From Candidatus Shapirobacteria bacterium (lineage in GTDB: Bacteria > Patescibacteriota > Microgenomatia > UBA12405), in contig JBAZTV010000001.1 in assembly GCA_041661765.1 (NCBI GenBank), positions 71,755-135,754 on the forward strand: a stretch of 64,000 nt of DNA, read 5' to 3'. Below the pieces are notes generated by a model. That model saw nothing but the letters and a program-made list of their open reading frames with translations. It did not search any database and had not been told where the DNA came from. A program made the translations under genes and the position numbers. Of the stretch, positions 14,489 through 34,564 are shown piece by piece (within the stretch, counting starts at the first letter, position 1; each line of letters begins with the position of its first letter).

Positions 14489-17400
14489 TTACAATCCAGT
14501 TGTATCTAATGTCGCTCCTACTTCTGTTGGTGTTGGTGTCAGTGTTGGTGTTGTTCCTCCAATATCCATTTTCAATAAAATCTGATCCAATTGCGATTTA
14601 GTAATACATGTTTCATTATTTTCTTCACCTACACATAAATTCTTAGTTTGAGTTTTATCAGTTACAATCTTTGGAGTAATTATTTCCACTCCGGCCACCA
14701 ACCGATCAGTTATTATTTCCGATAAATCGGTTAAAACTAAATTATCATTCTGCCACATCAATTCATCCAAAATTTGTTTTGAAAAATCAGTTGCATTTTC
14801 ATCAACCCCTGGCAATAAATCAGCAATTTTAGTTCCAGTTCCCAAACCATTTTTAATAAACATTAAAACCTGACCTGTCTCTTCACCCTCAAAATCGCTC
14901 ATCGCCGTTCCAATAATCGCTCCCGCTTTAGTCGCTTTCATTGCCACCCCTGGGGTCGATGACGAAGTTAGGGGATCACCCGCCTTAATTGGTCCATTTT
15001 CAGTATTCACTTTCACTGGTACTCTTCCCGACAATGCCACCGGTACTGATTTTACCCCTTCATCATCCACTTCTCCCATTATTACCCCCGGTCTCAAAGA
15101 AATTACTCCAAAAACATTATTATCATATGCCTTTTGGCTTTTTTTAACCCCCGCATTTAAGGTTGAATCTAAGCTCACCACATCTCCTGGAGCCATAGAA
15201 TTATCATTAGTTGAATAAAGTTCTGCCAAGTCTGCTCCCGAGGCCGCCACTTCAATTATTGTCATCATTATTTTTGGTACCGTATTTGGAGTTGTGGCAG
15301 TACTAGTCAGAGCACAAATAGTGTAAGCCTGAGAAGAAGTTGTATTTGGACTATCAATAAAACTAAAACCAAGATAACTGTCGACAGGGGAATCAGATGT
15401 ATGGCTTCCAGTTGTCAGTAAAGTTAAATCAGAATCAACTTGTGTTCCACCACAACCAGATACTCCTCTTCGAACTCTAAAAGTATTTGTTTCAGTATCA
15501 TTTGATGTCATAGTTACCTTAATTAATCCCGTAATTAAAATCCTATTACTGACAGATGATGGTGTAATTGCCGGGGCAGTTCCTTGAAGAATATTGGTTT
15601 CACCAATACCAAGAGTGTCAATAGTATTATCCACTATACTAGCGCTTTTTGCCGCTCCACCAGATCCGGTAGTATCACAATCTTTCCAGACACTATTTTC
15701 ATAACATCTAAATTTATTAGTAGAAGAATTGTAATAAGTGGCTCCATTTATTCCAGTCGGATCACTAGTTCCATTATCTAGCACTAATAAATCTGGTGCC
15801 GTTGTTCCACTGTTCCCAATAACCACTTTTCCGCTGGAATTCGTTCCACCAACCGCAAAAGTAATATTTCCACTACTAGCTTGAATAGTATTTGTACTTA
15901 TTCCACCATTAAATGTTTGCAGTCCAGTCCACACATTCGATGATCCCAAATTCAAAGCCACTGTGCCTGTGCTACCTAAAGAAATTGTTCCTCCGCCACT
16001 TAACCCTATCCCAACTGCCACAGTCAGCGAACTATTAACCAAACTAGTGTTAGTCAGGCCAGTAATTGTATTATTACCACCATCAATTGTTTTACCTGTA
16101 AATGTTTGAGTTTGTCCCACAAAAGCAAAAGTGTCATCTATGGTTAAACCTGGAATAGTGGCAATTCGACTAGTCGATGGAGCAATTGCTGATATGGTTG
16201 TTGTGTTATTTGTCCCTAAAGATAATTGATTTGTTGTATTAAAAATATTCAAAGCACCAGCTGGGTCCAGTCTCATTTTTTCACTTCTAGTAGTCGAACC
16301 TAAAGGTGTCACAATAAAAGATAAATAAGTTCCCCGGTTAGTGGCAGTAAAATTTTCTCCAGCAATGACTTGAAATGCTCCTGAACTACCTAAAACTCCT
16401 AATGGAAAAGTTGTACCATCATAACCGCGACCGCCAAGTGAAGCTAATTTATCATCTGTCTGGACTGCCAATGGAGCACTTTCCGTTCCTCTAGCCTTTC
16501 TGCCGACTACTCCTGGTGAATAAACATCATTACTGTATTTGGTCACATATAAAAAATCATTCTGAGAAATTAATTCAAATGGGCCAACAGGGTTAGTCGT
16601 CCCAATTCCCACAAACCCATTATTCATAATTACTATTGCTGTATTCGCGCCACTATCACCCACATTAAATTTTGTATTTATGCCGGTAGCATTATTTCCC
16701 GACAGGGCATTGTTACCAGCAATAGTTATTGTTCCATCTGCAATTGCACTACCAATAATCTGAGGCGTTAAAATCGAAGTTGTAAAAGTCGGGGAGGTAG
16801 ATAACACCAAAGCTGAACCACTCCCAGTCGTTGAATTACCCAAAGCCGTCACAGTTCCTGAAGTTGGTAAAGTTAAAGAAGTCGGCCCAGTAGTATTAAA
16901 GAAAAGCCCATTATTTAAAGTGGATAGGGGAATTTGTCCTGAAGCATCAGGTAAAGTCCAAGTTCTACCAGCCGTTAAATTAGCTTGGGTAATTATTCCC
17001 TGATAAGAAGTTGCTCCACCGTTCTGTCCAGGCGCAATTTTGATCGAATCATCAGTCACTGTATTAGATAAAAATTGCATTCCATTACCACTGCCAGTTT
17101 TAGCCGTAATACTACCTGTTCCACTTCTTAACTCAATACTGGTACTAGTTGTTGAATTTCCAATCGCAATAATATTAGAGGCATTTCCTGTTCCAATGTT
17201 AACCGTCATCCCCCCATTGCTGGCAAATAAATTAGCTGTTCCAGTTTGATTAACCCCCCCAATATCAAAAGTTCCAGTTGTTGTAGAGCTACCAATGGAA
17301 TAATTTGAAGAAGCAGTACCTTCTAGAGAAAAACCACTAGTTCCAACAAATAAATTTAACGAAGTATCACCAGTATTATTACCAATATTAATAATTTTTT

Positions 17401-20047
17401 CATTTGGACTATTGCCAATATTTATACCCCCATCCCCAGAAATAATATTAATTGGTTGATTAGCAGCAATATTACCAATTGTTACGGCGCCTAAAGCAGT
17501 TGTGTCAAAAATAGTATTATTTTGCGCCACCACCTTAAATGGATTAGCTGTTGATCCCGCTTTTGTACTTACTCCTAAAATATATTGAGAACCAGTTCCG
17601 TTTGTTGCAGCTGTATTTTCCCCAAAAGTAAAAGCCGTTTTGCCATCAGTCGTTAAACCCCAATTCCATATTTGAGCAAAATCATTACTATTAATAGTGT
17701 TCGCCGCAGTTGCTGCCGTTATATTACTCAAAATTGAAATTCTTGCTCCACATCCCCAGCTAGAAGTGCTACTATTCCATGCCAAAACTTGACTATTTGA
17801 GCAAGTTGTTATTAATGACAACCCAGAATTATTTTCTAAACCACCAGTTGAACTAAGTTGTATTGCTGAACCAGAAACCTTATCAGTGGTAGTAATTGTT
17901 GCCAAATTATTATCAGTTATGCCCGCAGTTCCCGATAAATTTGAATTAGTTAACCCAGTAATCGTATTTCCGATCGCTGTTATCGTTTTATTAGTTAACG
18001 TTTGAACTGTATCAATCATCACCACTTTATTCCCAATCCTAATTCTCGCCGCACTACTTCCCACATCAGACACAATAAATTCATCAGAAGAAACACCAGT
18101 AGATCCAAATTGTAATTCCACTATTGATGACACTGACGGAGTTTGGTCTGACTCTTCTATTGTCAAAGAACCACCACCCCCAGAGTTATCTGCGTCGCAA
18201 GCCCAACCACCAGAAGCTGTCCATTTTAGCAATTGACCGTCTGAACAAGTGCGAATAAGAGATAATCCTCCACCGTCAGATAGTAGTCCACCATCTAAAT
18301 AAACTGATGGTGTTCCGCCGGCAATATCCGATCCGCAAGCCCAACCACCAGAAGCTGTCCATTTTAGCAATTGACCGTCTGAACAAGTGCGAAGCAAAGT
18401 TAAACCGCCGCTGTCGCCAATTCCACCATTAGTATTCAATTGAACGGCTGAACCGGAAACTTTATTAGCAGTCACAATCGTCGCTAAATTAGCATCAGTT
18501 ATTCCCGCACTTCCCGATAAATTTGAATTTGTTAACCCAGAAATAGTATTACTTCCAGCATCAATAGTTTTATTTGTAAATGTTTGAGTTTGACCAACAA
18601 AGGCAAAAGTATCATCTATAGTTAAACCTGGAATTGTCGCAATCCGACTGGCATTTGGGGCAATCGCCGAGATGGTGGTGGTATTAGTTGCTCCTAAAGA
18701 CAGCTGATTTGTCGTTGTTGTGACGACCAAGCTATTAGTTAAATTAGCTCCATTAAAAGTTGGGTTGGCTAAAACATCAATATTTTGAATTGTATCTACT
18801 GCCCCATTTATTACCAAAAAATTAACGGCATCAAAAGAGGCCATTCCCTTAATCACATTAGTTGCATCAAGCCCTGCTATTTTTACAGTTCCACCCAAAG
18901 CTACTGGCGAACCGCTAATCCCAATTCCTGTTCCAGCCACCGCATTCACATTAATGCTATTATTTGCTAATTGCGAATTATTAATACCAGCCGACCCTGA
19001 TAAATTACTGTTGGTTAAACCAGTAATAGTCGTTGGTGTAACACTAATTACGCTTCCGTATTGATCTATTTGAAACACTGGAATTTGAGTAGCAGATCCA
19101 TAAATTCCAGGAGTGGCCACCGACACAAAAGATAAACTTAATGTTCCACCCAAACCCACTGTACCACCACCCTGTAAACCACTACCAGAAAGAGTTTCAA
19201 TAGTTATAGATGAATTAGCCAATTGTGAATTTGTAATACTCGCTCCAACCGAAAGATTGTTAGTCGTCAAACCAGTAATCGTATTATTGCCAGCAGCAAT
19301 GGTTTTATTTGTCAAAGTCGCCCCAAAATTATTAAACACAAAACTATCATTAGTACTCATCGCTGGAATGGTTACGATTCTATCTGCAGTTTGGGTATTA
19401 GCATTTATAGTAGTTTTTGAACCACTAACTCCCAAATTTAATTGGTTAGAGGTAGTAGTCATATTTAAACCATTGTTAATAGTCACATTATTAAAAGTTT
19501 GCAGACCCGTCCAAACATTAGACGCACCTAAATTCAATGCTAATGTGCCTCCTTCGTTTCCTGTCATCATTAATCCGCCTCCACCAGTGGCTCCCGCCAC
19601 ATAATTTCCCGAAGTATAAGTTCCTAAAACCACATCATTCCCATGCCAAACCCCAGTTGTAATCGTTCCTAAAGTTGACACATTAGTCGACCCTACCCAA
19701 GTTAATAAATCAGCACTTCCGCTGTCATCTCCACACACCCAATCTGTTCCGTTAAATTTTGGTATTTGTCCATTAATACAACTATTACTCGCCCATTTAA
19801 TAAAAGTTATTCCGCCATCAGTAATTTCTACCCCGCTTGAACCCACCGTCAACCCACTCCCAGTGGCTGTCGAAATTGTCACTGGCGGTGTCACTGTACA
19901 ATTTGGGTTAGTCGGTAAACAACTTGGAGTTAATGTTTCTCCTGGAGAATATAACGCCGTCGCTTCAATCTGCTTAGTAAAAACCAAAAATAATAAAACT
20001 AAAATAAATAAAGGGTATATATTAAAACGCCCCGCCTTCAATAACAT
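14489..20047 (-). CDS. Giant (1852-aa) secreted repeat-rich surface protein, G/T/S/N-rich
   Basis: N-terminal signal peptide MLLKAGRFNIYPLFILVLLFLVF. Repeated roughly 75-aa modules (TNQLSLG..IATIPGLTIDDTFAFVGQTQTFT.KTID.G.NTISGLTNSNLSG) and a duplicated CSDGQLLKWTASGGWAC unit. Confidence 0.75.
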   Translation of the reverse strand: MLLKAGRFNIYPLFILVLLFLVFTKQIEATALYSPGETLTPSCLPTNPNCTVTPPVTISTATGSGLTVGSSGVEITDGGITFIKWASNSCINGQIPKFNGTDWVCGDDSGSADLLTWVGSTNVSTLGTITTGVWHGNDVVLGTYTSGNYVAGATGGGGLMMTGNEGGTLALNLGASNVWTGLQTFNNVTINNGLNMTTTSNQLNLGVSGSKTTINANTQTADRIVTIPAMSTNDSFVFNNFGATLTNKTIAAGNNTITGLTTNNLSVGASITNSQLANSSITIETLSGSGLQGGGTVGLGGTLSLSFVSVATPGIYGSATQIPVFQIDQYGSVISVTPTTITGLTNSNLSGSAGINNSQLANNSINVNAVAGTGIGISGSPVALGGTVKIAGLDATNVIKGMASFDAVNFLVINGAVDTIQNIDVLANPTFNGANLTNSLVVTTTTNQLSLGATNTTTISAIAPNASRIATIPGLTIDDTFAFVGQTQTFTNKTIDAGSNTISGLTNSNLSGSAGITDANLATIVTANKVSGSAVQLNTNGGIGDSGGLTLLRTCSDGQLLKWTASGGWACGSDIAGGTPSVYLDGGLLSDGGGLSLIRTCSDGQLLKWTASGGWACDADNSGGGGSLTIEESDQTPSVSSIVELQFGSTGVSSDEFIVSDVGSSAARIRIGNKVVMIDTVQTLTNKTITAIGNTITGLTNSNLSGTAGITDNNLATITTTDKVSGSAIQLSSTGGLENNSGLSLITTCSNSQVLAWNSSTSSWGCGARISILSNITAATAANTINSNDFAQIWNWGLTTDGKTAFTFGENTAATNGTGSQYILGVSTKAGSTANPFKVVAQNNTIFDTTALGAVTIGNIAANQPINIISGDGGINIGNSPNEKIINIGNNTGDTSLNLFVGTSGFSLEGTASSNYSIGSSTTTGTFDIGGVNQTGTANLFASNGGMTVNIGTGNASNIIAIGNSTTSTSIELRSGTGSITAKTGSGNGMQFLSNTVTDDSIKIAPGQNGGATSYQGIITQANLTAGRTWTLPDASGQIPLSTLNNGLFFNTTGPTSLTLPTSGTVTALGNSTTGSGSALVLSTSPTFTTSILTPQIIGSAIADGTITIAGNNALSGNNATGINTKFNVGDSGANTAIVIMNNGFVGIGTTNPVGPFELISQNDFLYVTKYSNDVYSPGVVGRKARGTESAPLAVQTDDKLASLGGRGYDGTTFPLGVLGSSGAFQVIAGENFTATNRGTYLSFIVTPLGSTTRSEKMRLDPAGALNIFNTTNQLSLGTNNTTTISAIAPSTSRIATIPGLTIDDTFAFVGQTQTFTGKTIDGGNNTITGLTNTSLVNSSLTVAVGIGLSGGGTISLGSTGTVALNLGSSNVWTGLQTFNGGISTNTIQASSGNITFAVGGTNSSGKVVIGNSGTTAPDLLVLDNGTSDPTGINGATYYNSSTNKFRCYENSVWKDCDTTGSGGAAKSASIVDNTIDTLGIGETNILQGTAPAITPSSVSNRILITGLIKVTMTSNDTETNTFRVRRGVSGCGGTQVDSDLTLLTTGSHTSDSPVDSYLGFSFIDSPNTTSSQAYTICALTSTATTPNTVPKIMMTIIEVAASGADLAELYSTNDNSMAPGDVVSLDSTLNAGVKKSQKAYDNNVFGVISLRPGVIMGEVDDEGVKSVPVALSGRVPVKVNTENGPIKAGDPLTSSSTPGVAMKATKAGAIIGTAMSDFEGEETGQVLMFIKNGLGTGTKIADLLPGVDENATDFSKQILDELMWQNDNLVLTDLSEIITDRLVAGVEIITPKIVTDKTQTKNLCVGEENNETCITKSQLDQILLKMDIGGTTPTLTPTPTEVGATLDTTGL
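16082..16235. repeat. Intragenic ~155-nt repeat (copy 1 of 2), roughly 85% identical by eye to 18560-18715
   Basis: Direct nucleotide-similarity comparison inside the giant ORF. Confidence 0.7.
18197..18393. repeat. Tandem duplication of a 138-nt unit encoding TCSDGQLLKWTASGGWAC
   Basis: The near-identical 57-nt core gcaagcccaaccaccagaagctgtccattttagcaattgaccgtctgaacaagtgcgaa occurs at 18197 and again at 18335. Confidence 0.8.
18560..18715. repeat. Intragenic ~155-nt repeat (copy 2 of 2)
   Basis: Matches 16082-16235 (tcaat.gtttta..tgtaaatgtttgagtttg.cc.acaaa.gcaaaagt.tcatctat.gttaaacctggaat...). Confidence 0.7.
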
Positions 20048-20082: not shown

Positions 20083-20583
20083 TTATTTTTTCTTTTTAGA
20101 TACGATAATATCTATGATAGCCAAAATCGCCACCAAGCTGATTACTCCCAACAAAATAAAAAAATAAGTTTTTAATTCCTCATCTTTTCCCGCCACTACA
20201 TGAAAACTAGTCAACACTTCTTCAGCTAAGTTTTCATAATCACTTATTTTTACATTTAAGTTATAAAATCCAGTTTCAGAACTTTCTGGAATCACAATAA
20301 AATCTAAAAATTGAGCTTGTGTTTCTACTGCTTTTAAAACTTGTGATTGGGCTATTACTATTCCATCCTTAGTCACTTCATAATTCAATCGCAAATCCTT
20401 TCTTTGTGGATTTTCTGGATATTTAATATCTATTTCAAAATAAAGTCGGTCACCAGCCTGAATTTCAGTATATTTTTCTGAAATATTTGTTGACACACTC
20501 AAAGCCCTGGCATATGGCGCATTAATAAACATTTCTACATAAATAAAAACAACACAAATTACTTTAATTATCTTAACCATCAT
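20083..20583 (-). CDS. Small secreted protein with C-terminal TM anchor and basic tail (module A; paralog of 25218-25742)
   Basis: Signal peptide. Conserved core YPENPQRKDLRL.Y...VLKA.ETQ..F.D...IPES...G.Y is shared with its paralog. Ends ...LAIIDIIVSKKKK. Confidence 0.6.
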   Translation of the reverse strand: MMVKIIKVICVVFIYVEMFINAPYARALSVSTNISEKYTEIQAGDRLYFEIDIKYPENPQRKDLRLNYEVTKDGIVIAQSQVLKAVETQAQFLDFIVIPESSETGFYNLNVKISDYENLAEEVLTSFHVVAGKDEELKTYFFILLGVISLVAILAIIDIIVSKKKK

Positions 20584-21079
20584 GACGAATATTAATTAAA
20601 AAACTTAAAATTGAAAGATAAAGAAGTATATTGTAAAAAGCAAATAAAACCAAATTTGTATTATAAATAATAATCCTAAATGGTATAAATAAAGATAAAA
20701 TATTTAAGTTAAAAAAAATAATAGAGCATATAAAAAACATATAAAATAATAACGAGTTAATCTTTTTCTTATTAATATAAAAAAACATTACCGGGGCCAA
20801 TATTAATAAAAAATTAATATAATAAACCCAATCGATAATATTTAGTGAAAAATATAACATAAAAATATCAAGGAAAATCCTTATTAAAACTACAAGATAG
20901 GTTAAAAATATAAAAACTATTTGTTTTTTATCAGCTTTTTTAAATAATCCCACTACCAATAAACCCATCATCACAATTGTTAAAAGGACACAAATAAACA
21001 AAACACTTAGCTCTATATTTTGGTTAATATTAAACATTATCGTTTTTTTATTAAAATAATTAAAATCCATAAAGAACAT
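20573..21079 (-). CDS. Small 4-5 TM membrane protein (module A; counterpart of 25723-26208)
   Basis: 168-aa hydrophobic ORF. Occupies the same operon position as its module-B counterpart. Confidence 0.5.
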   Translation of the reverse strand: MFFMDFNYFNKKTIMFNINQNIELSVLFICVLLTIVMMGLLVVGLFKKADKKQIVFIFLTYLVVLIRIFLDIFMLYFSLNIIDWVYYINFLLILAPVMFFYINKKKINSLLFYMFFICSIIFFNLNILSLFIPFRIIIYNTNLVLFAFYNILLYLSILSFLINIRHDG

Positions 21080-21297
21080 ATTGCTAGAAGTGATTCAGAC
21101 ATAAACCAAGCTCTTTGATCATTAATGTTATATAAATTTAAAGCAACATTGATACAATAAGAAAGACTTATTGTAAAAAAAGGCAAAAAAATTCCCATTT
21201 TTTTTGAACGAATAATATTCAAAGAAGCTAGCCACATTAATACAATTGCTGACATCAACACAATAACTATTGTTAAAAAGTTTAAAAATATTGTCAC
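21037..21297 (-). CDS. Small 2-3 TM membrane protein (module A; paralog of 26195-26461)
   Basis: Shares LMWLASLNI../..KKMGIFLPFFTISLSYC with MIWLSSQAM../KKMVIPFVPFFMIGLAYC of the paralog. The true start may lie downstream of the 43-nt overlap. Confidence 0.5.
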   Translation of the reverse strand: MTIFLNFLTIVIVLMSAIVLMWLASLNIIRSKKMGIFLPFFTISLSYCINVALNLYNINDQRAWFMSESLLAICSLWILIILIKKR

Positions 21298-23123
21298 AAC
21301 TTCATTTCCTTTTTAAATCCATAAAAAATTAAAAACAAACTCACAAATTCTATAGTTCCCAATAGCAGCCAAAAATAAAGAGGAAAAGGTTCAAAATTAT
21401 TATTATATTCTTCAAAAAAAACTTGCGTTAATTTATCAAACAAAAATAAAATAGATCCCCATTGAATTAATTTTTTTGCCACCATATCTTTAAATTTAAA
21501 TGCATTAAAAAACAAATTAATTAAAACCATTATCATCACTAGATCAGGAATATCATTATAAAATGCCGCCTTTCTCCAATCATTAAAAAATGAAATTATA
21601 AAAAAGAAATAACCAATTGTAAAAATTAAAGAAAATAAAATAACATATCCAATTTTTAGTTTTATAAAAAAATTCTCAATTTTTGATATTTTTTTTATTT
21701 TTTCTTTTTCCAATAGTCTTATCTTATTTCTAATAGTTACTAAAACACCAATCAAAGAAAATAATAAAAAAATTATTATTGATGCAAACAATTCTTTATT
21801 AAAAGATATATCTAAAACTTCAGTCTCTTTAATTTCCGTTGCCAAACACCAAGGCAATCCAGTAATTAAAGAATTTGTGGCAATAGTTCTTTCATTATTA
21901 TAATTAAGTAAAATATTTATCGATGGATTTTTTATTCCAGAGAAACAATTACGGATATTGTCCGTATCAATAGTTTGAACAAACATATCAAAAGAACTAT
22001 TTCTTAATGGACTAACAAGTATTTTTTGGTCTTGACTTACTAAATAACTTTCACCAGTTTTAGCCAAACTTTCTTTATCTTCAACTATTCCAAAAACAAC
22101 ATTCATATTTTTAATCAAAGCCACATATCCTAATAATTTGTTTTGATCATACACTGGCGATAAAACTAAAAACTCTGGATACAAGTCACTATAATAATCA
22201 ATGTAAGCATCAGAAAATATAATCTCTTTTTTATTTTTTGTTTCAATAAATTTTTTTGTTAAATACCAATTTTGATTAACCGGCCAATTAAGATTTGACC
22301 CAACCTTTTCTTTAATTGTATTTGTATATACGACATAACCATCAGGATTTATTAAAAATAAATTATTAAAATCCTTTTTATTAACATTTTCTTCAAAAAA
22401 TTTTAAATTTAATTCAGATACCTCTTTAATCATTTTATAACTATCAACAGTGGCTGCTACCACCACTGCTAAACCAACTCCGTCACCAGTTTTAACGTCC
22501 AAATTAGCCATACGGACATATCTTCTTATTGGATTTTTATTCTTTTCATTCCAATTATAAAAACCATAAATATCTTGATTATTTTTTATACCCTCAATAA
22601 TCAGTTTATAAAGCTCTGGAGAATTTTTTATATCATCATAATTTTTTCCAAAAAATGTTCCACCTTCATTAAAAGAGGACACTTGCTGTTGGTAATTTTC
22701 AATCGAAATATAACCATCTAAACCAATTATTCCAGTTATAATTTTTTGAAAGACAGGATCGTTTTTAAATTCATTAAAATTTCTATTTGGATTTCTTTTA
22801 ATATAATTTTCTATTTCTTTAATAATAATATTAGACTCTTCGTCGACATTAATTTTCATTATTTGTTCACTAGAAACTAATGGCTCATCTAATAAATATT
22901 TTGTTTCATCTGAATTTGACAACTCTTTAATTTCATTATCTATAATTGAAAAATACGAATCAATCTTATTTTTCTTTAAATCAGAAACCTCAATTAATTG
23001 ATGGTATGTTTTTTTTAAGATTTGATTTTTAGTAAAAGTACAACTTATAAGCCAAAAAAGTCCACCTCCTAAAATACCCAAAAAACAAAAAATTATTATA
23101 CTTTTTATTCGACTCAAAATCAT
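21294..23123 (-). CDS. Membrane sensor-like protein: N-terminal TM, an extracytoplasmic Cache-like domain of about 430 aa, and a C-terminal 5-6 TM region with no cytoplasmic output domain (module A)
   Basis: Hydropathy pattern plus Cache-like strand motifs (GYVVYTN..., SYLVSQDQKILVSP). 609 aa. Confidence 0.5.
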   Translation of the reverse strand: MILSRIKSIIIFCFLGILGGGLFWLISCTFTKNQILKKTYHQLIEVSDLKKNKIDSYFSIIDNEIKELSNSDETKYLLDEPLVSSEQIMKINVDEESNIIIKEIENYIKRNPNRNFNEFKNDPVFQKIITGIIGLDGYISIENYQQQVSSFNEGGTFFGKNYDDIKNSPELYKLIIEGIKNNQDIYGFYNWNEKNKNPIRRYVRMANLDVKTGDGVGLAVVVAATVDSYKMIKEVSELNLKFFEENVNKKDFNNLFLINPDGYVVYTNTIKEKVGSNLNWPVNQNWYLTKKFIETKNKKEIIFSDAYIDYYSDLYPEFLVLSPVYDQNKLLGYVALIKNMNVVFGIVEDKESLAKTGESYLVSQDQKILVSPLRNSSFDMFVQTIDTDNIRNCFSGIKNPSINILLNYNNERTIATNSLITGLPWCLATEIKETEVLDISFNKELFASIIIFLLFSLIGVLVTIRNKIRLLEKEKIKKISKIENFFIKLKIGYVILFSLIFTIGYFFFIISFFNDWRKAAFYNDIPDLVMIMVLINLFFNAFKFKDMVAKKLIQWGSILFLFDKLTQVFFEEYNNNFEPFPLYFWLLLGTIEFVSLFLIFYGFKKEMKL

Positions 23124-25742: not shown

Positions 25743-26208
25743 TTTGAAATTTAATTAAGACTGCTAATATTAAAAAATATAGATCAATTACTGTTAATAA
25801 AGATAAAAACCCTGCCAATAACATCAACAAATTATTCCCAGTATTAATTTGAATAGTAAAAACTATAAAATTTAGGATTATCAATCCTATTCCGATTAAA
25901 ATCTCTGTCGGTCTAATAAATTGTCTAAAAACCGAAAATAGTCGAATATAAAGCCAAACTACTACTATGTTTATAGTAGTAAAAACAGAAAAATCGATCA
26001 TTCCTGGCCATCTAAAAAGAATAATAAATCCATAAGTCAGCAATAAAATTATCGAAGAAATAACCAAACTAAAAAACATTGATAGTAATATTCTTGCTTC
26101 TTTGTATTTGAATTGGAAAGATAATAATATTCCAAATAAAGTCATCAAAATAATTCCACTCCCTAAAAATAAGGATATTATTATAGTATCCAAATTAGTC
26201 AGAAACAT
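25723..26208 (-). CDS. Small 4-5 TM membrane protein (module B)
   Basis: 161-aa hydrophobic ORF. Confidence 0.5.
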   Translation of the reverse strand: MFLTNLDTIIISLFLGSGIILMTLFGILLSFQFKYKEARILLSMFFSLVISSIILLLTYGFIILFRWPGMIDFSVFTTINIVVVWLYIRLFSVFRQFIRPTEILIGIGLIILNFIVFTIQINTGNNLLMLLAGFLSLLTVIDLYFLILAVLIKFQNEPEYK

Positions 26209-26461
26209 ATTTTTTTATAGTAAAAACAAATAATCCAAAACTAATCAATAAAAATAAGTCTTTAAAAAACCAAAAAATATTAGTCAAAAGAAAATAAAAA
26301 GAAAATACTGAGGCAAAACAGTAAGCCAATCCAATCATAAAAAAGGGGACAAAGGGGATTACCATTTTCTTCTCCATCATTGCCTGTGACGACAACCAAA
26401 TCATTAATATTGCCAACATTAAATCTAAAAAACTTCCAAAATATAATAATAAATTGCTCAT
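26195..26461 (-). CDS. Small 2-3 TM membrane protein (module B)
   Basis: 88 aa. Paralog of 21037-21297. Confidence 0.5.
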   Translation of the reverse strand: MSNLLLYFGSFLDLMLAILMIWLSSQAMMEKKMVIPFVPFFMIGLAYCFASVFSFYFLLTNIFWFFKDLFLLISFGLFVFTIKKYVSD

Positions 26462-27537: not shown

Positions 27538-30476
27538 GAAATTAAGATTAATATGATTCCACCTCCAATAATAATCATCAGTAGTTTGTTCTCCAAGAAA
27601 TTAGTTGTAGGGGAGGAAGTAAAATCTCCAACTTCAAAATTTTGTTTAAATTCATCTTTAATATTAGTGTTATAAAGTGTGTTTAAGACTAATGTGTATT
27701 TACCTTTATCTAATAACAATCCTTCAAATGTTTTATTAAATACTCCTTCAGTTTGTATAGAGGTATTGTCAATTGATCTATAATATTCTTTTCCATTTGC
27801 ATCAACTATAGTAAATGTCATTTCTACTGGAGTATCTTCTTTTCCAAAACTTACAAATGTTACTCTGGCAGCTAATTCAGATGCTTTAGTTATTTGTGTT
27901 TTATCTACAATTAGGGCGATATCAAAAAGTTGAGATGGAATTTGAGAAACAGGCACAAATCCTTCAGCTGGAGTTGTTGTTTCACCAGTAGTACCTCCCG
28001 TAGTTGTTTCTATTATTCTTCCTCTTGGTGTTGCTGACACCTCATTCGACCAATCACCTGGCATACAATCATTAATTGCTTTTATCTTGAAATAATATCT
28101 AGTTCCACCAGATAATCCTTTGATTGTATAACTAGTAGTATCAGCATTTCCTACATTTGGATTACCGTATTCAATCGATCCAGAAGAAGTTCCATAAGCT
28201 ATTAAATATTTAGTTACTGGATTACTTGCTTTTGACCAAGTTAAAGTCACACTATTATCTCCATTAATTGTATTAGTAATAATTGGTGTCCCTCCTGGTT
28301 TAGTTGCACTACATGCTGGTGCTGCCCAACCAGTACTACTAATTGAAGAGGTGGAAGTTGAAGTAGAAGGTGAGGAGGTTGGGGTAGGGGTGGGTGTTGG
28401 AGTTGGTGTTATTGTTGAAACAGAACTGAAAACAATAAATTTAGTAAAATGTCTCGTCCATACCACTAAATCATTACCAACATCAATTTTACAATCTTCA
28501 TCCACCCCCAATGTCGCACCAGAATCACTCCCACAGGTCGTTGTAATTTCAGTGAATGGTATAGCACTTCTGAGATACCCCACTCTATTTCCCGCTTGAT
28601 CTGGAAACAATATCCTTACTGCTTTATCAAAAGATAATTTAACATCAGTCACTCCAACATCAATTGCCGTTTCCACAGTCCTCGTTTCACCCGAAACCTC
28701 AGGTATCGTCGTCGATATTGCTGTTGGAGCCAACATCATTCCATCCCAACCAATATCTGTACTTGATATTGAAGTTGAAGCCTGAATAGATATTCCCACA
28801 CCATTAACATTATTTGCCAAAATATTTACCTCTGGTAATGTTCCTGATCCACTAGAAATAAACCCACTAAAATCAATTGTTGGACTGGTTATTCCACTAT
28901 TTATTGTAATATTAGCCGGTGTAGTTGAATTTGTAATTACGGCTAAATATTGATTATTACTGCTGATTGTGGCTGTACCACCCACTTGATTAACCACTAA
29001 ATAATTTCTTGAATTTTCAATGTAATATGGAATAAAAGTTGCATTTCCATAAATTAATGATTTTGTAACCTGATAATTTTTACTTCCCCACCAATTATTT
29101 ATAGCACTTACTGTATCCGCAGTATTATTTCGTAAATTATAACTAGTATTACTAAATATCAAATTTTCAGTTATTTCGTATCCACCAATTGAAGTTCCCA
29201 CATCCAAAAAAATTCCTTTATCCCATCCGGAAATATTATTTCCTGTTATCGATGTTGTCACCGCCCCATCACCCAGATCAAAAATAGCGGATGAATTACT
29301 AGTCCCATCACCAGTTAAAGTATTTTCCAAAACACTCACTCCAACAGTATGGCTATTTGGAGTAAATCCCTCCAAACTAATACCACCACGAGGAAAACCA
29401 CTCCCAATTGTATTTAAATATAGTGTTGAATTATTAATATTTGCCTGTTCATTATCTAAATAAATTCCTGTTCCATAAGTATGTCCCGAACCAGAAATGT
29501 CATTATTTTGAATATTCACTTCTGAACTATATCTATCAGTAATTCCAAAATCACAATTAATAATCGTGTTGTTTTCAATCACCGCTCCATCTTGAATATT
29601 TATTACCTCTATTGCCGTATCCCAATCAGCAGTATTATAGTGTAGATCACTAACAACATTTCCCGAAATTGCTGTAACTGTTGCCCCATCATAAACTTTA
29701 ATTCCACCTTGTCGTCGCGTAGTTAAAATTCCACCCCCATTAATTACATTATTATGAATATTTACCGTTATATTTGTGGTTGTTTCTCCAATTTGAATCC
29801 CGCTACTTAAAAAATTAGAGGCCGTACAACCACTAATTTCAACTGCCTTTGCCGAAGTAGTATCAGCATCCGCCCAAAAAGCATGTATTCCACTTTTCCA
29901 CGATTCAGACCCAATCGGTATTACTACATGATCATTATGTATACTACTAACATTCTCAATTACCCCGCTAGTGTTATAAAAAAAGACTCCCCCAAAACGC
30001 ATATCGGGTATTGTTGAACCGAACCAATCTACTCTGTCAGTTGATAACGAAGATGCATCTACTGTTAAATTCTCTACTGTAACCGTACTTCCTATATCAT
30101 TAACCACAATTATCCCCGTTGTCATCCCGGATGGTGTTGTTACATATACATCCAACGAATTTGGTTTAATAACTGTAGTTCCTCCAGTTCCATTTAATAC
30201 TATCGCTTTAGTAATATTAACCTGTTCTACATATTCACCAGTCGCAATATTAAGAGTATCACCATCAACAACTCTAGTATCACCTATGGCATATTGAATA
30301 GTTTGAAAAGCGTTTGCTCCGCTTGCTGTTCCATGAGACCCATCATTAGTTCCACTCGGGTCAACATAATAATCAGTTGCCATTACTTGTTTAGGTTTTA
30401 TTAATAAACCAAACCTCAACAAATTTATTCCAATCAGACACCCAATCAAAAATAAGCCAAAACATTTTCTGTTCAC
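27504..30476 (-). CDS. Giant (990-aa) surface protein: right-handed parallel beta-helix (pectate-lyase/PbH1-like), a (TP)n linker, a fibronectin type III domain, and a C-terminal TM anchor with RRRK tail
   Basis: N-terminal ATDYYVDPSGTNDGSHGT...FQTIQYAIG typical of beta-helix proteins. Repeated NN.I.N/G rungs. TPTPTPTPTP linker. FN3 region (LTWSKASNPVTKYLIAYGTSSG...GTRYYFKIKAIN). Ends GGGIILILISWIIGLVRRRK. Confidence 0.7.
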   Translation of the reverse strand: MNRKCFGLFLIGCLIGINLLRFGLLIKPKQVMATDYYVDPSGTNDGSHGTASGANAFQTIQYAIGDTRVVDGDTLNIATGEYVEQVNITKAIVLNGTGGTTVIKPNSLDVYVTTPSGMTTGIIVVNDIGSTVTVENLTVDASSLSTDRVDWFGSTIPDMRFGGVFFYNTSGVIENVSSIHNDHVVIPIGSESWKSGIHAFWADADTTSAKAVEISGCTASNFLSSGIQIGETTTNITVNIHNNVINGGGILTTRRQGGIKVYDGATVTAISGNVVSDLHYNTADWDTAIEVINIQDGAVIENNTIINCDFGITDRYSSEVNIQNNDISGSGHTYGTGIYLDNEQANINNSTLYLNTIGSGFPRGGISLEGFTPNSHTVGVSVLENTLTGDGTSNSSAIFDLGDGAVTTSITGNNISGWDKGIFLDVGTSIGGYEITENLIFSNTSYNLRNNTADTVSAINNWWGSKNYQVTKSLIYGNATFIPYYIENSRNYLVVNQVGGTATISSNNQYLAVITNSTTPANITINSGITSPTIDFSGFISSGSGTLPEVNILANNVNGVGISIQASTSISSTDIGWDGMMLAPTAISTTIPEVSGETRTVETAIDVGVTDVKLSFDKAVRILFPDQAGNRVGYLRSAIPFTEITTTCGSDSGATLGVDEDCKIDVGNDLVVWTRHFTKFIVFSSVSTITPTPTPTPTPTSSPSTSTSTSSISSTGWAAPACSATKPGGTPIITNTINGDNSVTLTWSKASNPVTKYLIAYGTSSGSIEYGNPNVGNADTTSYTIKGLSGGTRYYFKIKAINDCMPGDWSNEVSATPRGRIIETTTGGTTGETTTPAEGFVPVSQIPSQLFDIALIVDKTQITKASELAARVTFVSFGKEDTPVEMTFTIVDANGKEYYRSIDNTSIQTEGVFNKTFEGLLLDKGKYTLVLNTLYNTNIKDEFKQNFEVGDFTSSPTTNFLENKLLMIIIGGGIILILISWIIGLVRRRK

Positions 30477-30555
30477 AAATAAATAAAACCAAATATAAGT
30501 TAAAAAATGTTAAAAAGTTAACAAAATCTTAAAAATCCTAGCAATTAATCAAATC

Positions 30556-32370
30556 TTAATATCCACCTATAAATTTCATTGTTTCTGTCTGTTCCTCGAT
30601 TGCTTTTTTAGCTGATTGTTCCGGATTTTCTAATACTGACAAAATTAATTCTGGTTTTTCAATCAATTTAATTTCACTTATTTTTTTCCTCGACTTACTT
30701 ATATTTTTTAAAATAGTATTCGAAATTTCAATTAAAACTTCTTTCCAAAATATTTCCTTAAAATCATTTTTACTGGTTGCTTTCTTAAAAATTTCCACTG
30801 CCACCGGATTAATAAATCCTTTTTTTAAATCGTCTTCCCAATCATGCGCATCATCATTTAATTGTCTAGCAATCAAGTAATGCTTAAAAAAAATCCAAAT
30901 ATTTTTTACCTCTAGTGAATTTTTATCAAATCCCAATGAATACAAAATCGCAATTGGTCCCAATGCATGCCCCAAAGATTTTTTAGCCAATTGTAAATAA
31001 TCACCATAATTAGGTATTTGTTTTTCGTTATAACAATTAATAACTTCCCAATAATTAGCCGCATCAATTTCATCCATCGTGTTATTAAAAAAATCAGCAA
31101 AATCAGTTTTTGGCAAAATACCATTATATATAAGTGCCAATTCTCTTAAACACACGTTCGCCATCGACAAAGTTTTTTTATCTCCATCACCATCCAAAAA
31201 ATCATCATAAATTGTATAGGCAATCCATCCATAAAGATTAGCCAATCCACATTTAATAATTAATTTCTTTGACACCCTTTTTCCATTTTTTCCCAAAGAT
31301 TTATAAAAAATATACGGTAAAAGAGTAATACTTTTTTTACAATTTTCTTCAGGTATTTGGGATAAAAAATTTACTCTTTTTTGGGCTATTCGTAGTATTT
31401 CCTGGTGAATTTCACCAGCCATTTTATCCTTTTTTTGATCAGGTTTTTTAATCGTCATTAAAAAATATTTATTTAACGCTTCCACACAAAAAGCTGTCGT
31501 TAAAGACGGGGAGCCAGCATAATAAGTTTCTCTATTTATCGCCGGATCAATACAAAAAGCACTTGCTTTCCAAGAACCATCGTTTTTTTGATTTTTAATT
31601 AAGTAATTAATACTTGGCCATAAAATTTTTAAATCAATTTTTAAATTTAAAAGCGAATTAACCGCCAAGGCTGTATTTAATGGGTTTCCCCAATTATCAC
31701 CATTTTTTTTCGATAAAATTATTTTTATTAATTTTTCCGATTTAAAAAATCTAGAGATAAAATAAACAATTGGATAAATGGAAGGGTAGTAAGGCGATGT
31801 CAAATTTTCTTTTTCGATCGCTAATTTAATTAGCTTATTAATATTTTCTAATTCAATTTCTTGCAATGACAAAAAATAACCAATATTACTATTAACTGCC
31901 AAATCAACATCTTTCCAAACTTTATCAACATTTTTCGAAACCAGCCAAGTTTTATATGGTCCGCCTTCTTTTTTTTCCATCGCCGTCAACAAAGTCACAA
32001 TTTTAACTACTACTGCTCCGTCAATTAATTTTGAATTATATTTATAGATTCCACTCAAAGCACAAAAAGTATCATCAAGATCGTCAGGGTAGGGCATTCT
32101 TTTGTTTTCTTCTGCGTCGCGTTTCCAATAATTAAACGACCAGTGTTCACTTTTTTGAGACAAAAGAAAATTCACTAATCTCTTTTTGATTTCCTCCGAT
32201 TTTTCTACCGAATCTAAACAAGATAAAATTAATGCTGATGGAAAAATAGAATTATATTTTTTAGTCTTATTAAAATTATTTTTATTTGGACTCGACCAAC
32301 TCAAAAAACCACCATCATTTTGTTGTTGACCTTTAATAAAACTAATTGCTCGATCAATATTTTTTTTCAT
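30556..32370 (-). CDS. Cytoplasmic alpha/alpha-toroid protein with class-II terpene-cyclase-like motifs (QW repeats, DxDDT) and a C-terminal domain with DDxxD plus a downstream NDxxHDxxED
   Basis: QQNDGGF and NQKNDGSW (QxxDGxW). YPDDLDDTFCAL (DxDDT). IYDDFLDGD (DDxxD), and about 115 aa later LNDDAHDWEDD. No signal peptide. 604 aa. Confidence 0.4.
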   Translation of the reverse strand: MKKNIDRAISFIKGQQQNDGGFLSWSSPNKNNFNKTKKYNSIFPSALILSCLDSVEKSEEIKKRLVNFLLSQKSEHWSFNYWKRDAEENKRMPYPDDLDDTFCALSGIYKYNSKLIDGAVVVKIVTLLTAMEKKEGGPYKTWLVSKNVDKVWKDVDLAVNSNIGYFLSLQEIELENINKLIKLAIEKENLTSPYYPSIYPIVYFISRFFKSEKLIKIILSKKNGDNWGNPLNTALAVNSLLNLKIDLKILWPSINYLIKNQKNDGSWKASAFCIDPAINRETYYAGSPSLTTAFCVEALNKYFLMTIKKPDQKKDKMAGEIHQEILRIAQKRVNFLSQIPEENCKKSITLLPYIFYKSLGKNGKRVSKKLIIKCGLANLYGWIAYTIYDDFLDGDGDKKTLSMANVCLRELALIYNGILPKTDFADFFNNTMDEIDAANYWEVINCYNEKQIPNYGDYLQLAKKSLGHALGPIAILYSLGFDKNSLEVKNIWIFFKHYLIARQLNDDAHDWEDDLKKGFINPVAVEIFKKATSKNDFKEIFWKEVLIEISNTILKNISKSRKKISEIKLIEKPELILSVLENPEQSAKKAIEEQTETMKFIGGY

Positions 32371-33715
32371 CGGTTTTTTTTCTAACAGGGAATCTAATAG
32401 TAAACAAAGTTCCTTCGTTTAATTTACTTTTCACTTCAACCTTTCCCCCAAATTCTTTTTCTACAATAGTTTTACTTATATAAAGCCCAATCCCTGTACC
32501 CTTTTCAGAATCTTTAGTAGTAAACAACGGATCAAAAATTTTTTGTTTAATTTCTTCACCAATACCGCAACCAAAATCTTCCACCTTTAATATTATTTCG
32601 TCTCTATCAATCTTCAATTCAACAATAATTTTTCTATTTTTATCTCTTTCTACTTCACAATACGAATCTAATGCGTTAGAAATCAAATTACTAACCAATT
32701 GATAAAATCTAACCGGGTTACCAAACGTACTGATTTCTTTTTTACCAATAATACTAAGTTGAATTTTCATTTCTTTAGCTCTATATTCAAAACTTTCCAT
32801 TACCGACACTATTTCTATCCATGGCCTAAAATTACTTTTTGTCTCTTGCTGTTGGATTTGTTTTCTTACTGACACAACCAATTTTTCCATTTGTTTAGTT
32901 CCTTTAATCGCTCTCCTAATAGTGGGTTCAATTTTGTTTAATTCATGTGATATTTTATTTTTTGTTTGCAACTTTATATTACTTAAACTTAAAGATACTT
33001 GTGTTAACGGGTTAGCAATATCATGAAACATTCCTGCTGTTAATCGTCCAAAATCAGCAAATTTATATAAATTTACCATTCTTTCCAATTGAACTGTTTT
33101 TAACTCTTTCGTTCTTTTCTCAACTTCAATTTCCAAATTATCCCGTTCTTTTTTTAATGCAACTTCAGAATTTTTAGCCAGTCTTAAGGCCTTTTCGATT
33201 TCTCTGTTCGACAACCAAGAAACAAGGCAAATAACACATAAAATTACACTTTTCACCAAAGTTGAACCCCATGTTGGTTCTATTGTCCACGAGACATATC
33301 CAATTCGATTATTAATTTGTAAAAAAGTTAAAAGAGATATTAACAACACGTGAATTCCAATCAGAAATAAAGTAAATCTAATCGTAAAAAGTACCCCTGT
33401 TAACACTATTACTAATATCAATAAAATCCAAAAATAAGATATCACCACACCAAAACATATTCCTAGATAATAAGCTATTAAAGATAATATTAAAATCAAA
33501 ATAAACGACGGTACAAACAAATATCCTTTCTTTACTAATCCCAATAAAAACAAAAAAAGACCCAAAAATAAACCAGGAACAAACTCAAACAAAAAATCAT
33601 ATTGCACACCATTTATTACTACATTCACCAAAACTGCAATTAAAGAAAGAAAAATAATCCCACGCAAAATAACTACCAACAACAACAATTTTCGCTCTTT
33701 TTCTTCTCTTAACAA
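32354..33715 (-). CDS. Sensor histidine kinase with an N-terminal 6-TM intramembrane-type domain
   Basis: H-box FHDIANPLTQVSLS. HATPase N/G boxes (GCGIGEE, GTGIGLYISK). About 170 aa of consecutive TM helices with no periplasmic domain. Confidence 0.85.
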   Translation of the reverse strand: MLREEKERKLLLLVVILRGIIFLSLIAVLVNVVINGVQYDFLFEFVPGLFLGLFLFLLGLVKKGYLFVPSFILILILSLIAYYLGICFGVVISYFWILLILVIVLTGVLFTIRFTLFLIGIHVLLISLLTFLQINNRIGYVSWTIEPTWGSTLVKSVILCVICLVSWLSNREIEKALRLAKNSEVALKKERDNLEIEVEKRTKELKTVQLERMVNLYKFADFGRLTAGMFHDIANPLTQVSLSLSNIKLQTKNKISHELNKIEPTIRRAIKGTKQMEKLVVSVRKQIQQQETKSNFRPWIEIVSVMESFEYRAKEMKIQLSIIGKKEISTFGNPVRFYQLVSNLISNALDSYCEVERDKNRKIIVELKIDRDEIILKVEDFGCGIGEEIKQKIFDPLFTTKDSEKGTGIGLYISKTIVEKEFGGKVEVKSKLNEGTLFTIRFPVRKKTDEKKY

Positions 33716-33726: not shown

Positions 33727-33840
33727 TTAAATTATTTGTTCCCATGGCTCTGCTACCACAATCGACATTACAAACGCTGCCACAGCAACTACATTTCTTG
33801 CTTTTTTATCAGTCAAAACTTTTTTCATTAATTCTTTCAT
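33727..33840 (-). CDS. Putative 37-aa single-TM membrane peptide between the response-regulator and histidine-kinase genes (MKELMKKVLTDKKARNVVAVAAFVMSIVVAEPWEQII)
   Basis: Manual translation. GGAGAT sits 7 nt upstream of the ATG. Not in the supplied ORF track (below the length cut-off). Confidence 0.35.
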   Translation of the reverse strand: MKELMKKVLTDKKARNVVAVAAFVMSIVVAEPWEQII

Positions 33841-33895: not shown

Positions 33896-34564
33896 TCAAG
33901 TAGCAATTTTATATCCCAAGCTATGCACCGATTTAATCATCTTAACTCCAAACTGTCGATCAATTTTATTTCTTAAATAATTAATATGAACATCAACAGT
34001 ATTAGTCAACTGATTTGTATCACTTTCCCATACATGCTCCAAAATCATACTTCTCGTCAATACTTTACCAGCATTACGCATTAAATATTCTAATAATCTA
34101 AATTCCTTCAATCTAAGTTCAATTCTATCCCCTTTATATTCAGCTGTATTAGAAACAGTATCTAAAATTAAACCATTAACTGATAATTTATCAGATGAAA
34201 AACCATTTGGAGCCCGTCTTATTAAAGCTTGTAGCCTGGCATGAAGTTCTTCAAAACTAAATGGCTTAGTTAAATAATCATCCGCCCCTAAATTAAGAGC
34301 ATTAATTTTATCCCTCGTTTCTGATTTTCCTGTTAGCATTATAATCGGTGTTTTAATTTCACCTTCTCTAATATTTCGGCAAACTTGAAATCCATCAATA
34401 TCAGGCAAAACCACATCCAGTACTATTGCATCATAATCATTATCAAACACCAAATCCTCTCCTTTTTGCCCAGTATAGGCTATATCGATTGCATAATAAA
34501 CTTTTAACATTTCCTTAATCGAACTTGCCGTTTGTCTTTCATCCTCAATTAACAAAATTTTCAT
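33896..34564 (-). CDS. OmpR-family response regulator
   Basis: Receiver residues (DE...D...T/K) and a C-terminal winged helix. Paralog of 52019-52687. Confidence 0.85.
   Translation of the reverse strand: MKILLIEDERQTASSIKEMLKVYYAIDIAYTGQKGEDLVFDNDYDAIVLDVVLPDIDGFQVCRNIREGEIKTPIIMLTGKSETRDKINALNLGADDYLTKPFSFEELHARLQALIRRAPNGFSSDKLSVNGLILDTVSNTAEYKGDRIELRLKEFRLLEYLMRNAGKVLTRSMILEHVWESDTNQLTNTVDVHINYLRNKIDRQFGVKMIKSVHSLGYKIAT

Follow-up and report, generated by a model that had tools for sequence, protein, structure and literature searches.

What is encoded by a tightly packed, co-directional run of genes that joins a two-component system and a terpene cyclase-like protein to a series of membrane and surface proteins? 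We addressed this question in a 64,000-nt stretch of a Candidatus Shapirobacteria genome (contig JBAZTV010000001.1, positions 71,755 to 135,754; hereafter "the window"), in which 18 genes on the minus strand are packed over positions 13810-34564, with junctions ranging from a 43-nt overlap to a 79-nt gap. Lists of open reading frames (ORFs) and a table of gaps agreed with a first-pass annotation of this cluster in order, sizes and strand: a response regulator is followed by a 37-amino acid (aa) ORF, a histidine kinase, a 604-aa protein, a 990-aa protein, a set of four genes, a set of six genes, an 1852-aa protein and a CAP-domain protein. Pfam and NCBIfam scans also agreed with its domain calls. 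The first-pass annotation had gone on to interpret the whole ~20 kb as one sensing-and-deployment system; by contrast, comparison of gene order across species splits the cluster into separate units. We propose that the region is a juxtaposition of such units, and that the first of them, a four-gene cassette, makes and senses a peptide whose Trp carries a cyclised terpene; taken whole, we give this proposal slightly better than an even chance.

We surveyed the cassette using one genome per species, which yielded 80 loci from Microgenomates, Parcubacteria, Saccharimonadia, CPR2 and other lineages. Six-frame ORFs around these loci were searched with the proteins of the window, and the denominators given here are the loci with enough DNA. 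In the window, synteny over the 80 loci delimits the cassette (unit 1) to 30556-34564 on the minus strand, beginning with a 222-aa OmpR-family response regulator (33896..34564, minus strand; Pfam Response_reg, E=1e-26; Trans_reg_C, E=2e-24). A homologous kinase lies directly upstream of the gene for the 604-aa protein, a putative enzyme, in 71/73 loci, and a small ORF of the peptide type lies between regulator and kinase in 65/67. The regulator is upstream and on the same strand in 53/56 loci; in two more it is divergent and just downstream. No family of upstream genes is common to more than 3 of 60 loci, and in 28/79 the gene that comes next downstream lies on the other strand. The 604-aa protein has more than 1000 homologues of ~650 aa, with 45-50% identity even in other classes of the candidate phyla radiation (CPR), and an exhaustive profile search recovered 1354 cluster representatives (50% identity) of the enzyme family at E<=1e-30. 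Detection of the 990-aa protein, the proteins of the four- and six-gene sets and the 1852-aa protein was confined to close relatives, apart from partial matches in loci L020 and L064. We conclude with high confidence that the four genes are a conserved unit, separable from the modules that follow them. The link that had been drawn between the two-component system and the terpene cyclase-like protein is therefore a general one, upheld across Patescibacteria by the adjacency of the kinase and by natural kinase-enzyme fusions. Conservation of the wider neighbourhood proved more limited: where the 604-aa protein is at least 66% identical, relatives (L004, L006, L003 and L092-L100) retain the gene order in full.

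Some of the cassette-bearing contigs (L010, L012, L017, L019, L027, L029, L033, L051 and others) have public labels such as Gammaproteobacteria, Methylomirabilota, Sulfotelmatobacter and Vitreimonas. These labels probably reflect mis-assigned taxonomy of metagenome-assembled genomes, because single contigs of 1.3-1.4 Mb are among them.

The second gene of the cassette (33727..33840, minus strand) is the conserved small ORF between regulator and kinase, and encodes a 37-aa precursor-like peptide, MKELMKKVLTDKKARNVVAVAAFVMSIVVAEPWEQII, with a leader motif, LTDKKAR, at 33796-33816 and an invariant Trp (Trp33) whose codon is at 33742-33744. Across 69 distinct sequences, members of this family are 34-46 aa long and share an N-terminus of the form M-x-E/K-L-I/L-K-K-V/I-L-T-D-K-x-A-R, followed by a variable middle. 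In each of the 69 peptides 1-6 residues follow the last Trp, and in 57 peptides it comes after a Pro. Both this genome and other Microgenomates have a hydrophobic middle, whereas that of Saccharimonadia is hydrophilic (e.g., MKDVIASILTDASARDSNTVEDTLMQQAVATPWAN), indicating that a role in the membrane is not the conserved feature. The earlier description of a "membrane peptide" hence suits the hydrophobic peptide of this genome but does not extend to the family. A conserved leader, a variable core and an invariant Trp close to the end together suggest that the peptide is most likely the precursor of a pheromone or of a ribosomally synthesised peptide with post-translational modifications (RiPP).

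The last gene of the cassette encodes the 604-aa protein, for which Pfam and NCBIfam scans returned weak squalene-cyclase, prenyltransferase-toroid and TED matches. An AlphaFold2 model built from a 60-sequence alignment is a confident fusion of two domains (mean predicted local distance difference test, pLDDT, 94; predicted template modelling score, pTM, 0.82). The protein has no signal peptide and no transmembrane (TM) segment and is therefore expected to be cytoplasmic. Its N-terminal domain (residues 1-308; 31447..32370, minus strand) is a class II terpene cyclase of the monodomain kind by fold and motifs. The class II motif PYPDDLDDT occupies residues 93-101 (DDLDDT, residues 96-101, at 32068-32085), and a QW-type motif, QKNDGSW, occupies residues 261-267 (31570-31590). 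Asp97 and Asp99 are invariant in 60 homologues, and the class II DxD core is kept in at least 83 of 90; it is lost in L037/L038 and L126/L141. The family profile for residues 1-308 matches the class II domain of drimenol synthase (9mhs/9m7d, E=1.5e-9), such that PYPDDLDDT aligns to PDDLDTT of that enzyme and the D333N site of entry 9m7d falls on Asp99. Residues 1-308 form only one alpha/alpha barrel, rather than the beta-gamma didomain architecture, and their best fold matches are monodomain or HAD-fused, beta-only cyclases.

The C-terminal domain (residues 316-604; 30559..31425, minus strand) resembles trans-IDS, the trans-isoprenyl diphosphate synthases. It has a first Asp-rich motif, DDFLD (residues 389-393, at 31192-31206), and a second of the form Q-x2-DDAHD (Q503-LN-DDAHD, with DDAHD at residues 506-510; 30841-30864). 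Both motifs are invariant or almost invariant: of 90 homologues, 89 keep the Q-x2-DDxxD arrangement and at least 85 keep the first Asp-rich motif. The best fold matches of this domain are chain-elongating synthases. Canonical chain-elongating enzymes carry RRG after the first Asp-rich motif; as read from the sequence, RRG is missing from the 604-aa protein. Moreover, none of 60 members of the enzyme family reaches E<=0.01 with Pfam polyprenyl_synt (PF00348), and one passes Terpene_synth_C. On the basis of these motifs and of the gene neighbourhood, the C-terminal domain is most likely a prenyltransferase like ComQ, PalQ and the P domain of ChrPC. A precomputed Pfam accession, PF28380, is attached to some homologues of the 604-aa protein (P0030, P0060, P0073, P0107 and P0119), and our Pfam scan of P0060 did not return it; PF28380 may be a recently built family covering part of the protein.

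The sole recurrent neighbour of the cassette is a separate polyprenyl synthase (polyprenyl_synt PF00348, E=1e-58), found in the flanks of 20/80 loci (for example, L016:11944-12894 and L022:7286-8323). Its gene immediately follows that of the enzyme in 13 loci, and lies between regulator and peptide in 4.

The third gene of the cassette encodes a 453-aa histidine kinase (32354..33715, minus strand) with a HATPase_c domain (E=6e-25) and a weak HisKA match; its best NCBIfam matches are to AtoS/PrsK-type kinases, all under their cutoffs. The kinase has approximately six hydrophobic or TM segments within residues 10-168, joined by short loops, and no sizeable extracytoplasmic sensor domain. Its H-box is FHDIANPL, with the His codon at 33023-33025, and its gene overlaps that of the 604-aa protein by 17 nt. 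A search with proteins of the modules led to two metagenomic contigs, L126 and L141, in which kinase and enzyme are a single ORF. In L126 the fusion (L126:1834-4833) is 999 aa long and is preceded by a regulator and by a 36-aa peptide ending in GAPWLS; in L141 it is interrupted by the end of the contig (L141:2-2362). In both contigs a module follows ~1 kb downstream, and the fused enzyme is 33% identical to that of the window. The existence of such fusions indicates that enzyme and receptor are functionally tied. In the fused forms, the segment with the class II DxDD motif is deleted and both Asp-rich motifs are kept, which suggests that it is the transferase-like domain whose activity is indispensable, with cyclisation as an elaboration on it.

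Which known system does this combination resemble? In the ComQXPA system of Bacillus subtilis, the trans-IDS-like ComQ prenylates an internal Trp of ComX, the polytopic kinase ComP senses the resulting pheromone, and ComA is the regulator. The cassette shares with ComQXPA a small precursor with a near-C-terminal Trp, a trans-IDS-like enzyme with Asp-rich motifs, a polytopic kinase and a regulator, all adjacent. It differs in gene order (here regulator, peptide, kinase, enzyme), in the additional class II cyclase domain of the enzyme, and in its distribution across Patescibacteria rather than Bacillus. In the PalPXQ system of Paenibacillus alvei, a kinase is combined with a precursor that has a conserved leader and a C-terminal Trp, and with a Trp prenyltransferase of the terpene synthase superfamily (PMC10853753). 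Kinase, leader-plus-Trp precursor and an enzyme of this type likewise form one small cluster here; however, PalX has a nitrile hydratase-type leader and a strictly C-terminal Trp, whereas the peptides described here have a leader of ~15 aa with LTDKxAR and 1-6 residues after the Trp. PalQ also lacks a cyclase domain, and in Patescibacteria the regulator belongs to the cassette. The characterised trans-IDS-like peptide prenyltransferases all target Trp, and in enzymes of the ComQ, PalQ and ChrPC type a shared Gln just upstream of the second Asp-rich motif contacts the indole NH and is reported to determine indole recognition (PMC13290415, a 2026 review). ChrPC is a fusion of a trans-IDS-like prenyltransferase to an MstE-like cyclase, and prenylates an internal Trp before cyclising the installed chain (PMC13290415). 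The 604-aa protein has both folds and the catalytic motifs of ChrPC/NctPC (trans-IDS-like domain and MstE-like monodomain cyclase), here with the cyclase N-terminal; the cassette differs in being hard-wired to a two-component system. The precursors of ChrPC/NctPC, the enzymes of Hubrich et al. 2024, are said to be of the proteusin, Nif11 or lasso types, in contrast to the ~36-aa peptides of the cassette.

The cassette combines features of the ComQXPA/PalPXQ type, namely a precursor with a near-C-terminal Trp, Asp-rich motifs with an upstream Gln, and an adjacent polytopic kinase, with a feature of PC-type RiPP maturases, an MstE-like monodomain cyclase with a catalytic Asp fused to a prenyltransferase-like domain. 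The likeness to ComQ, PalQ and ChrPC rests on fold, motifs, gene neighbourhood and the descriptions of those systems, and makes the cassette most likely a variant of the ComQXPA/PalPXQ/ChrPC kind. The earlier statement that no named system corresponds to the cluster was thus mistaken for its four-gene core, which fits the logic of these systems.

We next consider the genes that follow the cassette. Unit 2 (20083-30476) begins with a 990-aa anchored surface protein with beta-helix and FN3 domains (27504..30476, minus strand; fn3, E=8e-12; weak NosD/beta-helix matches), whose N-terminus holds a signal or anchor and whose C-terminus holds a TM segment; its orthologue in L004 carries Pfam Beta_helix. 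The C-terminal ~160 residues (residues ~830-990, at 27507-27989) are an Ig-like and TM piece conserved in the module family. Module B (25218..27537, minus strand) has four genes, encoding a 359-aa protein with an ectodomain and 5 TM segments, an 88-aa protein with 3, a 161-aa protein with 5, and a 174-aa protein with an Ig-like domain between two helices. Module A (20083..25228, minus strand) has six genes, encoding a 347-aa dCache protein (dCache_1, E=4e-12), a 357-aa membrane-anchored ABC_sub_bind protein (PF04392, E=9e-13), a 609-aa protein with a Cache domain and 5 TM segments (its homologues carry PF02743), proteins of 86 and 168 aa, and a 166-aa Ig-like protein. Pairwise BLAST showed that the two modules share paralogous parts: the 174- and 166-aa proteins are 50% identical (E=5e-47), the 88- and 86-aa proteins 32% identical (E=6e-14), and the 359- and 609-aa proteins 24% identical over 296 aa (E=1e-9), and the match between the 161- and 168-aa proteins is marginal (E=1e-3). 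A word-indexed search with the 609-aa Cache protein reached only 21 proteins, indicating that this family evolves too fast to be traced in that way.

The Cache and binding protein-like proteins of the modules had been proposed as accessory sensors of the kinase, in the manner of BceAB or LiaF. Synteny argues against this proposal: a module gene lies within 10 kb of only 4/80 species-level cassette loci, and the constant partners of the kinase are the small peptide and the enzyme. Conversely, modules stand alone, with no kinase of this type in the vicinity, in distant bacteria as well as in DPANN archaea. The six-gene order of module A is found far from any cassette in L086, L157, L158 and L161; L086, which lacks a cassette, has dCache, ABC_sub_bind, 622-aa, 86-aa, binding-protein and 170-aa genes. 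In L087, whose assembly bears the label Nanoarchaeota, two dCache genes and a 160-aa gene are present without a cassette, and L088 has two dCache genes together with 84-, 159- and 163-aa genes, also without a cassette; a gene for ribosomal protein L35Ae, an archaeal/eukaryotic marker, lies ~2.6 kb downstream on the same contig as the latter. A scan of metagenomes added 78 further module loci, and we used the 31 module loci of at least 9 kb for counts. A Cache protein is present in 27 of the 31, and a protein with the C-terminal piece of the 990-aa protein in 24, usually encoded just upstream of the Cache gene, indicating that the 990-aa protein belongs with the modules. By contrast, a cassette is present in 5 of the 31, three of them in the clade of the window. 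The ~165-aa Ig-like anchored protein of the module is ~50% identical across matches, and the module lacks cytoplasmic domains. We conclude that unit 2 is an independent, extracytoplasmic membrane module, present here as a tandem pair of paralogues, and that this module crosses domains, occurring in both CPR bacteria and DPANN archaea.

Are cassette and modules linked in this lineage, or have they merely come to lie side by side? The latter explanation, in which, ordinary operons aside, the adjacency of cassette, modules and giant proteins is without functional meaning and comes from strand bias in a compact genome, concerns only the link between the units and is compatible with our reading of the cassette; we put it just short of an even chance. 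Of the 32 bins of 2 kb that make up the window, 31 have a negative GC skew, and >90% of cassettes and most modules are unlinked. Although the cluster between 13810 and 34564 is real, it is part of a minus-strand run that goes on past both of the ends first given, from 13365 to 41996, and the largest gap of the whole run, of 115 nt, is upstream of the regulator. Beyond that gap (34680-41996, minus strand) are genes for a Trp/Tyr-permease-like transporter, a 380-aa protein without a family, HSP20, diacylglycerol kinase and an FN3-containing S8 peptidase of 1401 aa. Because the run includes such genes, some of them housekeeping genes, co-directionality alone defines no system. Scans of 13000-42500 for consensus promoters and terminators returned sites no more often than in shuffled sequences, and no intergenic terminators, so transcription units cannot be defined from them.

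Two observations weigh on the other side. First, the arrangement of a cassette followed by a module recurs outside the clade of the window with enzymes only 33-45% identical: in L126/L141 and, more loosely, in L020. Second, the widest junction of the cluster, the 79-nt gap between the 604-aa and 990-aa genes, contains a promoter-like block, TTTTTTAACTTATATTTGGTTT (30486..30507, minus strand), identified by alignment of seven relatives. In this 22-nt block, TTTTTTAACTT[A/T]TATTT[G/A][G/C]TTT, 19 of 22 positions are invariant in all seven. The block overlaps a sigma-70-like match, TTAACT-18-TATATT (9/12), in a consensus scan that was overall no better than shuffles. The Shapirobacteria clade (enzyme at least 66% identical) keeps the entire order; in one of its subclades a WxL cluster of three genes is inserted after the enzyme gene, and the block persists in relatives with this cluster behind it. 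The block therefore looks like a putative promoter that travels with the cassette. The WxL cluster does not take the place of the modules in L003; it is inserted ahead of them, and they come further downstream. No regulator-binding motif was established. An 8-mer, TAACTTTT, occurs in all three intergenic gaps of the cassette, and we dropped it as a regulator box, as it is found 14 times in the window against 13.35 expected and is not conserved in L006. We regard control of the surface modules by the cassette in this lineage as a tentative and rather doubtful proposition.

From the co-inheritance of the cassette genes, the pattern of the peptide, the domain folds with their catalytic motifs, the linkage to a supplier of prenyl diphosphate and the natural fusions, we infer the following chemistry, export and ligand-receptor relation. 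The ~36-aa peptide would be the precursor, with the LTDKxAR leader as recognition element and the near-C-terminal Trp as acceptor. The trans-IDS-like domain would prenylate Trp33 from an isoprenoid diphosphate, which in a quarter of lineages may be supplied by the dedicated polyprenyl synthase next door. The class II cyclase domain would then protonate and cyclise the attached chain via Asp99, and the lipidated, processed peptide would be released from the cell. Finally, the kinase, with its six TM segments, would sense the lipopeptide within the membrane and phosphorylate the OmpR-type regulator. We consider it probable that the enzyme acts on the Trp of the peptide; that the full signalling loop operates is an evenly balanced question.

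Several observations weigh against this proposal. There is no polyprenyl synthase within the window itself, and no conserved exporter or leader peptidase was found next to the cassette in the flanks of the survey loci. The regulator is of the OmpR type and is not ComA-like, unlike that of ComQXPA. Pfam and NCBIfam scans of the 604-aa protein and of 60 family members gave no match to a family named for ComQ. Ordinary chain-elongating synthases also have a Gln before the second Asp-rich motif, so that this residue does not discriminate between them and peptide prenyltransferases. Hence the C-terminal domain could be a chain-length synthase that feeds the cyclase. Partial Mantel tests of the peptide core against the membrane domain of the kinase showed no specific co-variation beyond shared phylogeny; values for the membrane and catalytic domains of the kinase and for the two domains of the enzyme were all weakly positive (partial r 0.12-0.24), and their similarity means that there is no specific signal of co-evolution and that signalling is not discriminated from other RiPP roles. 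Lastly, cassette and modules may be less independent than we state, because their adjacency recurs in at least three divergent lineages (the clade of the window, L126/L141 and L020).

The main rival explanation for the cassette is that the 604-aa protein makes a free cyclic terpenoid, serving as a membrane lipid or hopanoid surrogate, while the kinase monitors the membrane and the peptide only modulates the kinase. In this scheme the synthase-like domain would build or ionise a prenyl diphosphate, to be cyclised by the class II domain. The nearest structural relatives of the enzyme (drimenol synthase, MstE, and cyclases of the squalene-hopene and tetraprenyl-curcumene type) use free isoprenoids, the C-terminal domain has chain-elongating synthases as its best fold matches, and a polyprenyl synthase is linked in 20/80 loci. 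Patescibacteria are also not known to synthesise lipids. The likeness to AsDMS, the drimenol synthase, and to MstE, which are the best matches in sequence and fold for residues 1-308, lies in one alpha/alpha-barrel beta domain that carries DxD(D/T)T as its general-acid motif; however, those enzymes take free farnesyl diphosphate or meroterpenoids as substrates, have a phosphatase or nothing as fusion partner rather than a trans-IDS-like domain, and have no associated peptide or kinase. The explanation leaves the peptide, with its invariant Trp and conserved leader in 65/67 cassettes, unaccounted for. A separate, bona fide polyprenyl synthase beside the enzyme, and the failure of any family member to reach polyprenyl_synt, argue that the C-terminal domain is not the elongating enzyme. 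Likewise, the RRG of canonical enzymes is missing after the first Asp-rich motif, and kinase-fused forms that have lost the cyclase motif keep both Asp-rich motifs. We therefore consider a free terpenoid product improbable, and a modified Trp peptide the better account of the cassette.

A modified peptide might instead act as a bioactive lipopeptide, that is to say as a RiPP with an antimicrobial or effector role against hosts or competitors, and the two-component system would then only autoinduce production or immunity, as NisRK does for nisin. The evidence on enzymology applies to this explanation as it does to signalling, and a variable core and tail are typical of RiPPs; the PC-type product of Hubrich et al. 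2024 is reportedly modestly antibacterial. On the other hand, no conserved immunity transporter or protease was found in the flanks of the survey loci, and both the retention of one locus across a radiation of reduced genomes and the fusion of enzyme to receptor kinase fit signalling better. We thus regard an antimicrobial role as quite unlikely.

The weakest explanation is the original one, in which all 20 kb act as one envelope system with the Cache and binding protein-like proteins as sensors for the kinase: the tight packing, the order kept where the enzyme of relatives is at least 66% identical, the recurrence of cassette-then-module in the distant L126/L141 and L020, the conserved promoter-like block directly behind the cassette and the lack of an extracytoplasmic domain in the kinase all speak for it, but module genes accompany 4/80 cassettes while kinase, peptide and enzyme are nearly always together, modules occur without such a kinase in L086 and in the archaeal L087 and in L088, the co-directional run also holds HSP20, diacylglycerol kinase and permease genes, and the resemblance to BceRS-BceAB and LiaFSR, which share a kinase without a sizeable extracytoplasmic sensor domain, breaks down because the kinase here has approximately six TM segments rather than two, the cluster contains no BceAB-type ABC transporter and no LiaF homologue, and, across relatives, the proteins put forward as accessories are not found together with the kinase, so that we consider it very unlikely.

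The remaining genes of the cluster are lineage-specific surface cargo. The first encodes an 1852-aa secreted repeat protein rich in Thr, Gly, Ser and Asn (14489..20047, minus strand), which has three internal DNA repeat families; it has no Pfam domain above the curated cutoff, and no match in NCBIfam, PHROGs or the PDB. Proteins resembling it come after the modules in close relatives and are near modules in L107 and L142. The suggestion that its C-terminus is like a phage tail fibre went unsupported, as PDB, PHROGs and family searches were without match. The second is a 220-aa secreted CAP-domain protein (13810..14472, minus strand; Pfam CAP, E=2e-6, 28.9 bits against a cutoff of 21.1), no homologue of which was found in any cassette locus searched. 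The last gene of the minus-strand run (13365-13802, minus strand) encodes a 145-aa protein with four TM segments; homologues lie within 10 kb of the cassette in the distant Saccharimonadia loci L051, L062 and L075, which may be coincidence. Upstream of the cassette, the permease, HSP20 and diacylglycerol kinase genes are kept in only the closest relatives (L003 and L006). The G+C content of the window is ~30%, and is 0.36-0.40 over the two large surface-protein genes (14000-20000 and 28000-30000) versus 0.235-0.28 over the modules (20000-28000). This contrast is probably due to the Gly/Thr/Ser-rich composition of the proteins and not to foreign origin.

Patescibacteria (CPR) are tiny, mostly episymbiotic cells with very few regulators and little biosynthesis. 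Full-text literature searches found neither the cassette nor the module described in these organisms, and an earlier mention is possible. In the broadest form of our proposal, which is speculative and which we hold to be doubtful as a whole, the cassette would be a near-universal circuit of Patescibacteria in which a Trp peptide bearing a cyclised terpene, acting as a pheromone or in the sensing of a host or partner, is read by the kinase with six TM segments; some lineages, this one among them, would switch on attachment modules, shared with DPANN archaea, via the cassette promoter. If this is so, a four-gene cassette distributed over Microgenomates, Parcubacteria, Saccharimonadia and CPR2 would be one of the few universal signalling devices in these organisms, and would offer a testable handle on how Patescibacteria sense one another or their hosts. 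To natural-product chemistry it would also contribute thousands of compact maturases of the cyclase-prenyltransferase type, each paired with an obvious substrate of ~36 aa, among which the variants that have lost the cyclase motif or are fused to the kinase are natural experiments. The cassette points to an investment of isoprenoid diphosphate beyond the carrier lipid of the cell wall, and the module of Cache, small TM and Ig-like proteins is a conserved surface device common to CPR bacteria and DPANN archaea, both of them ultra-small symbionts.

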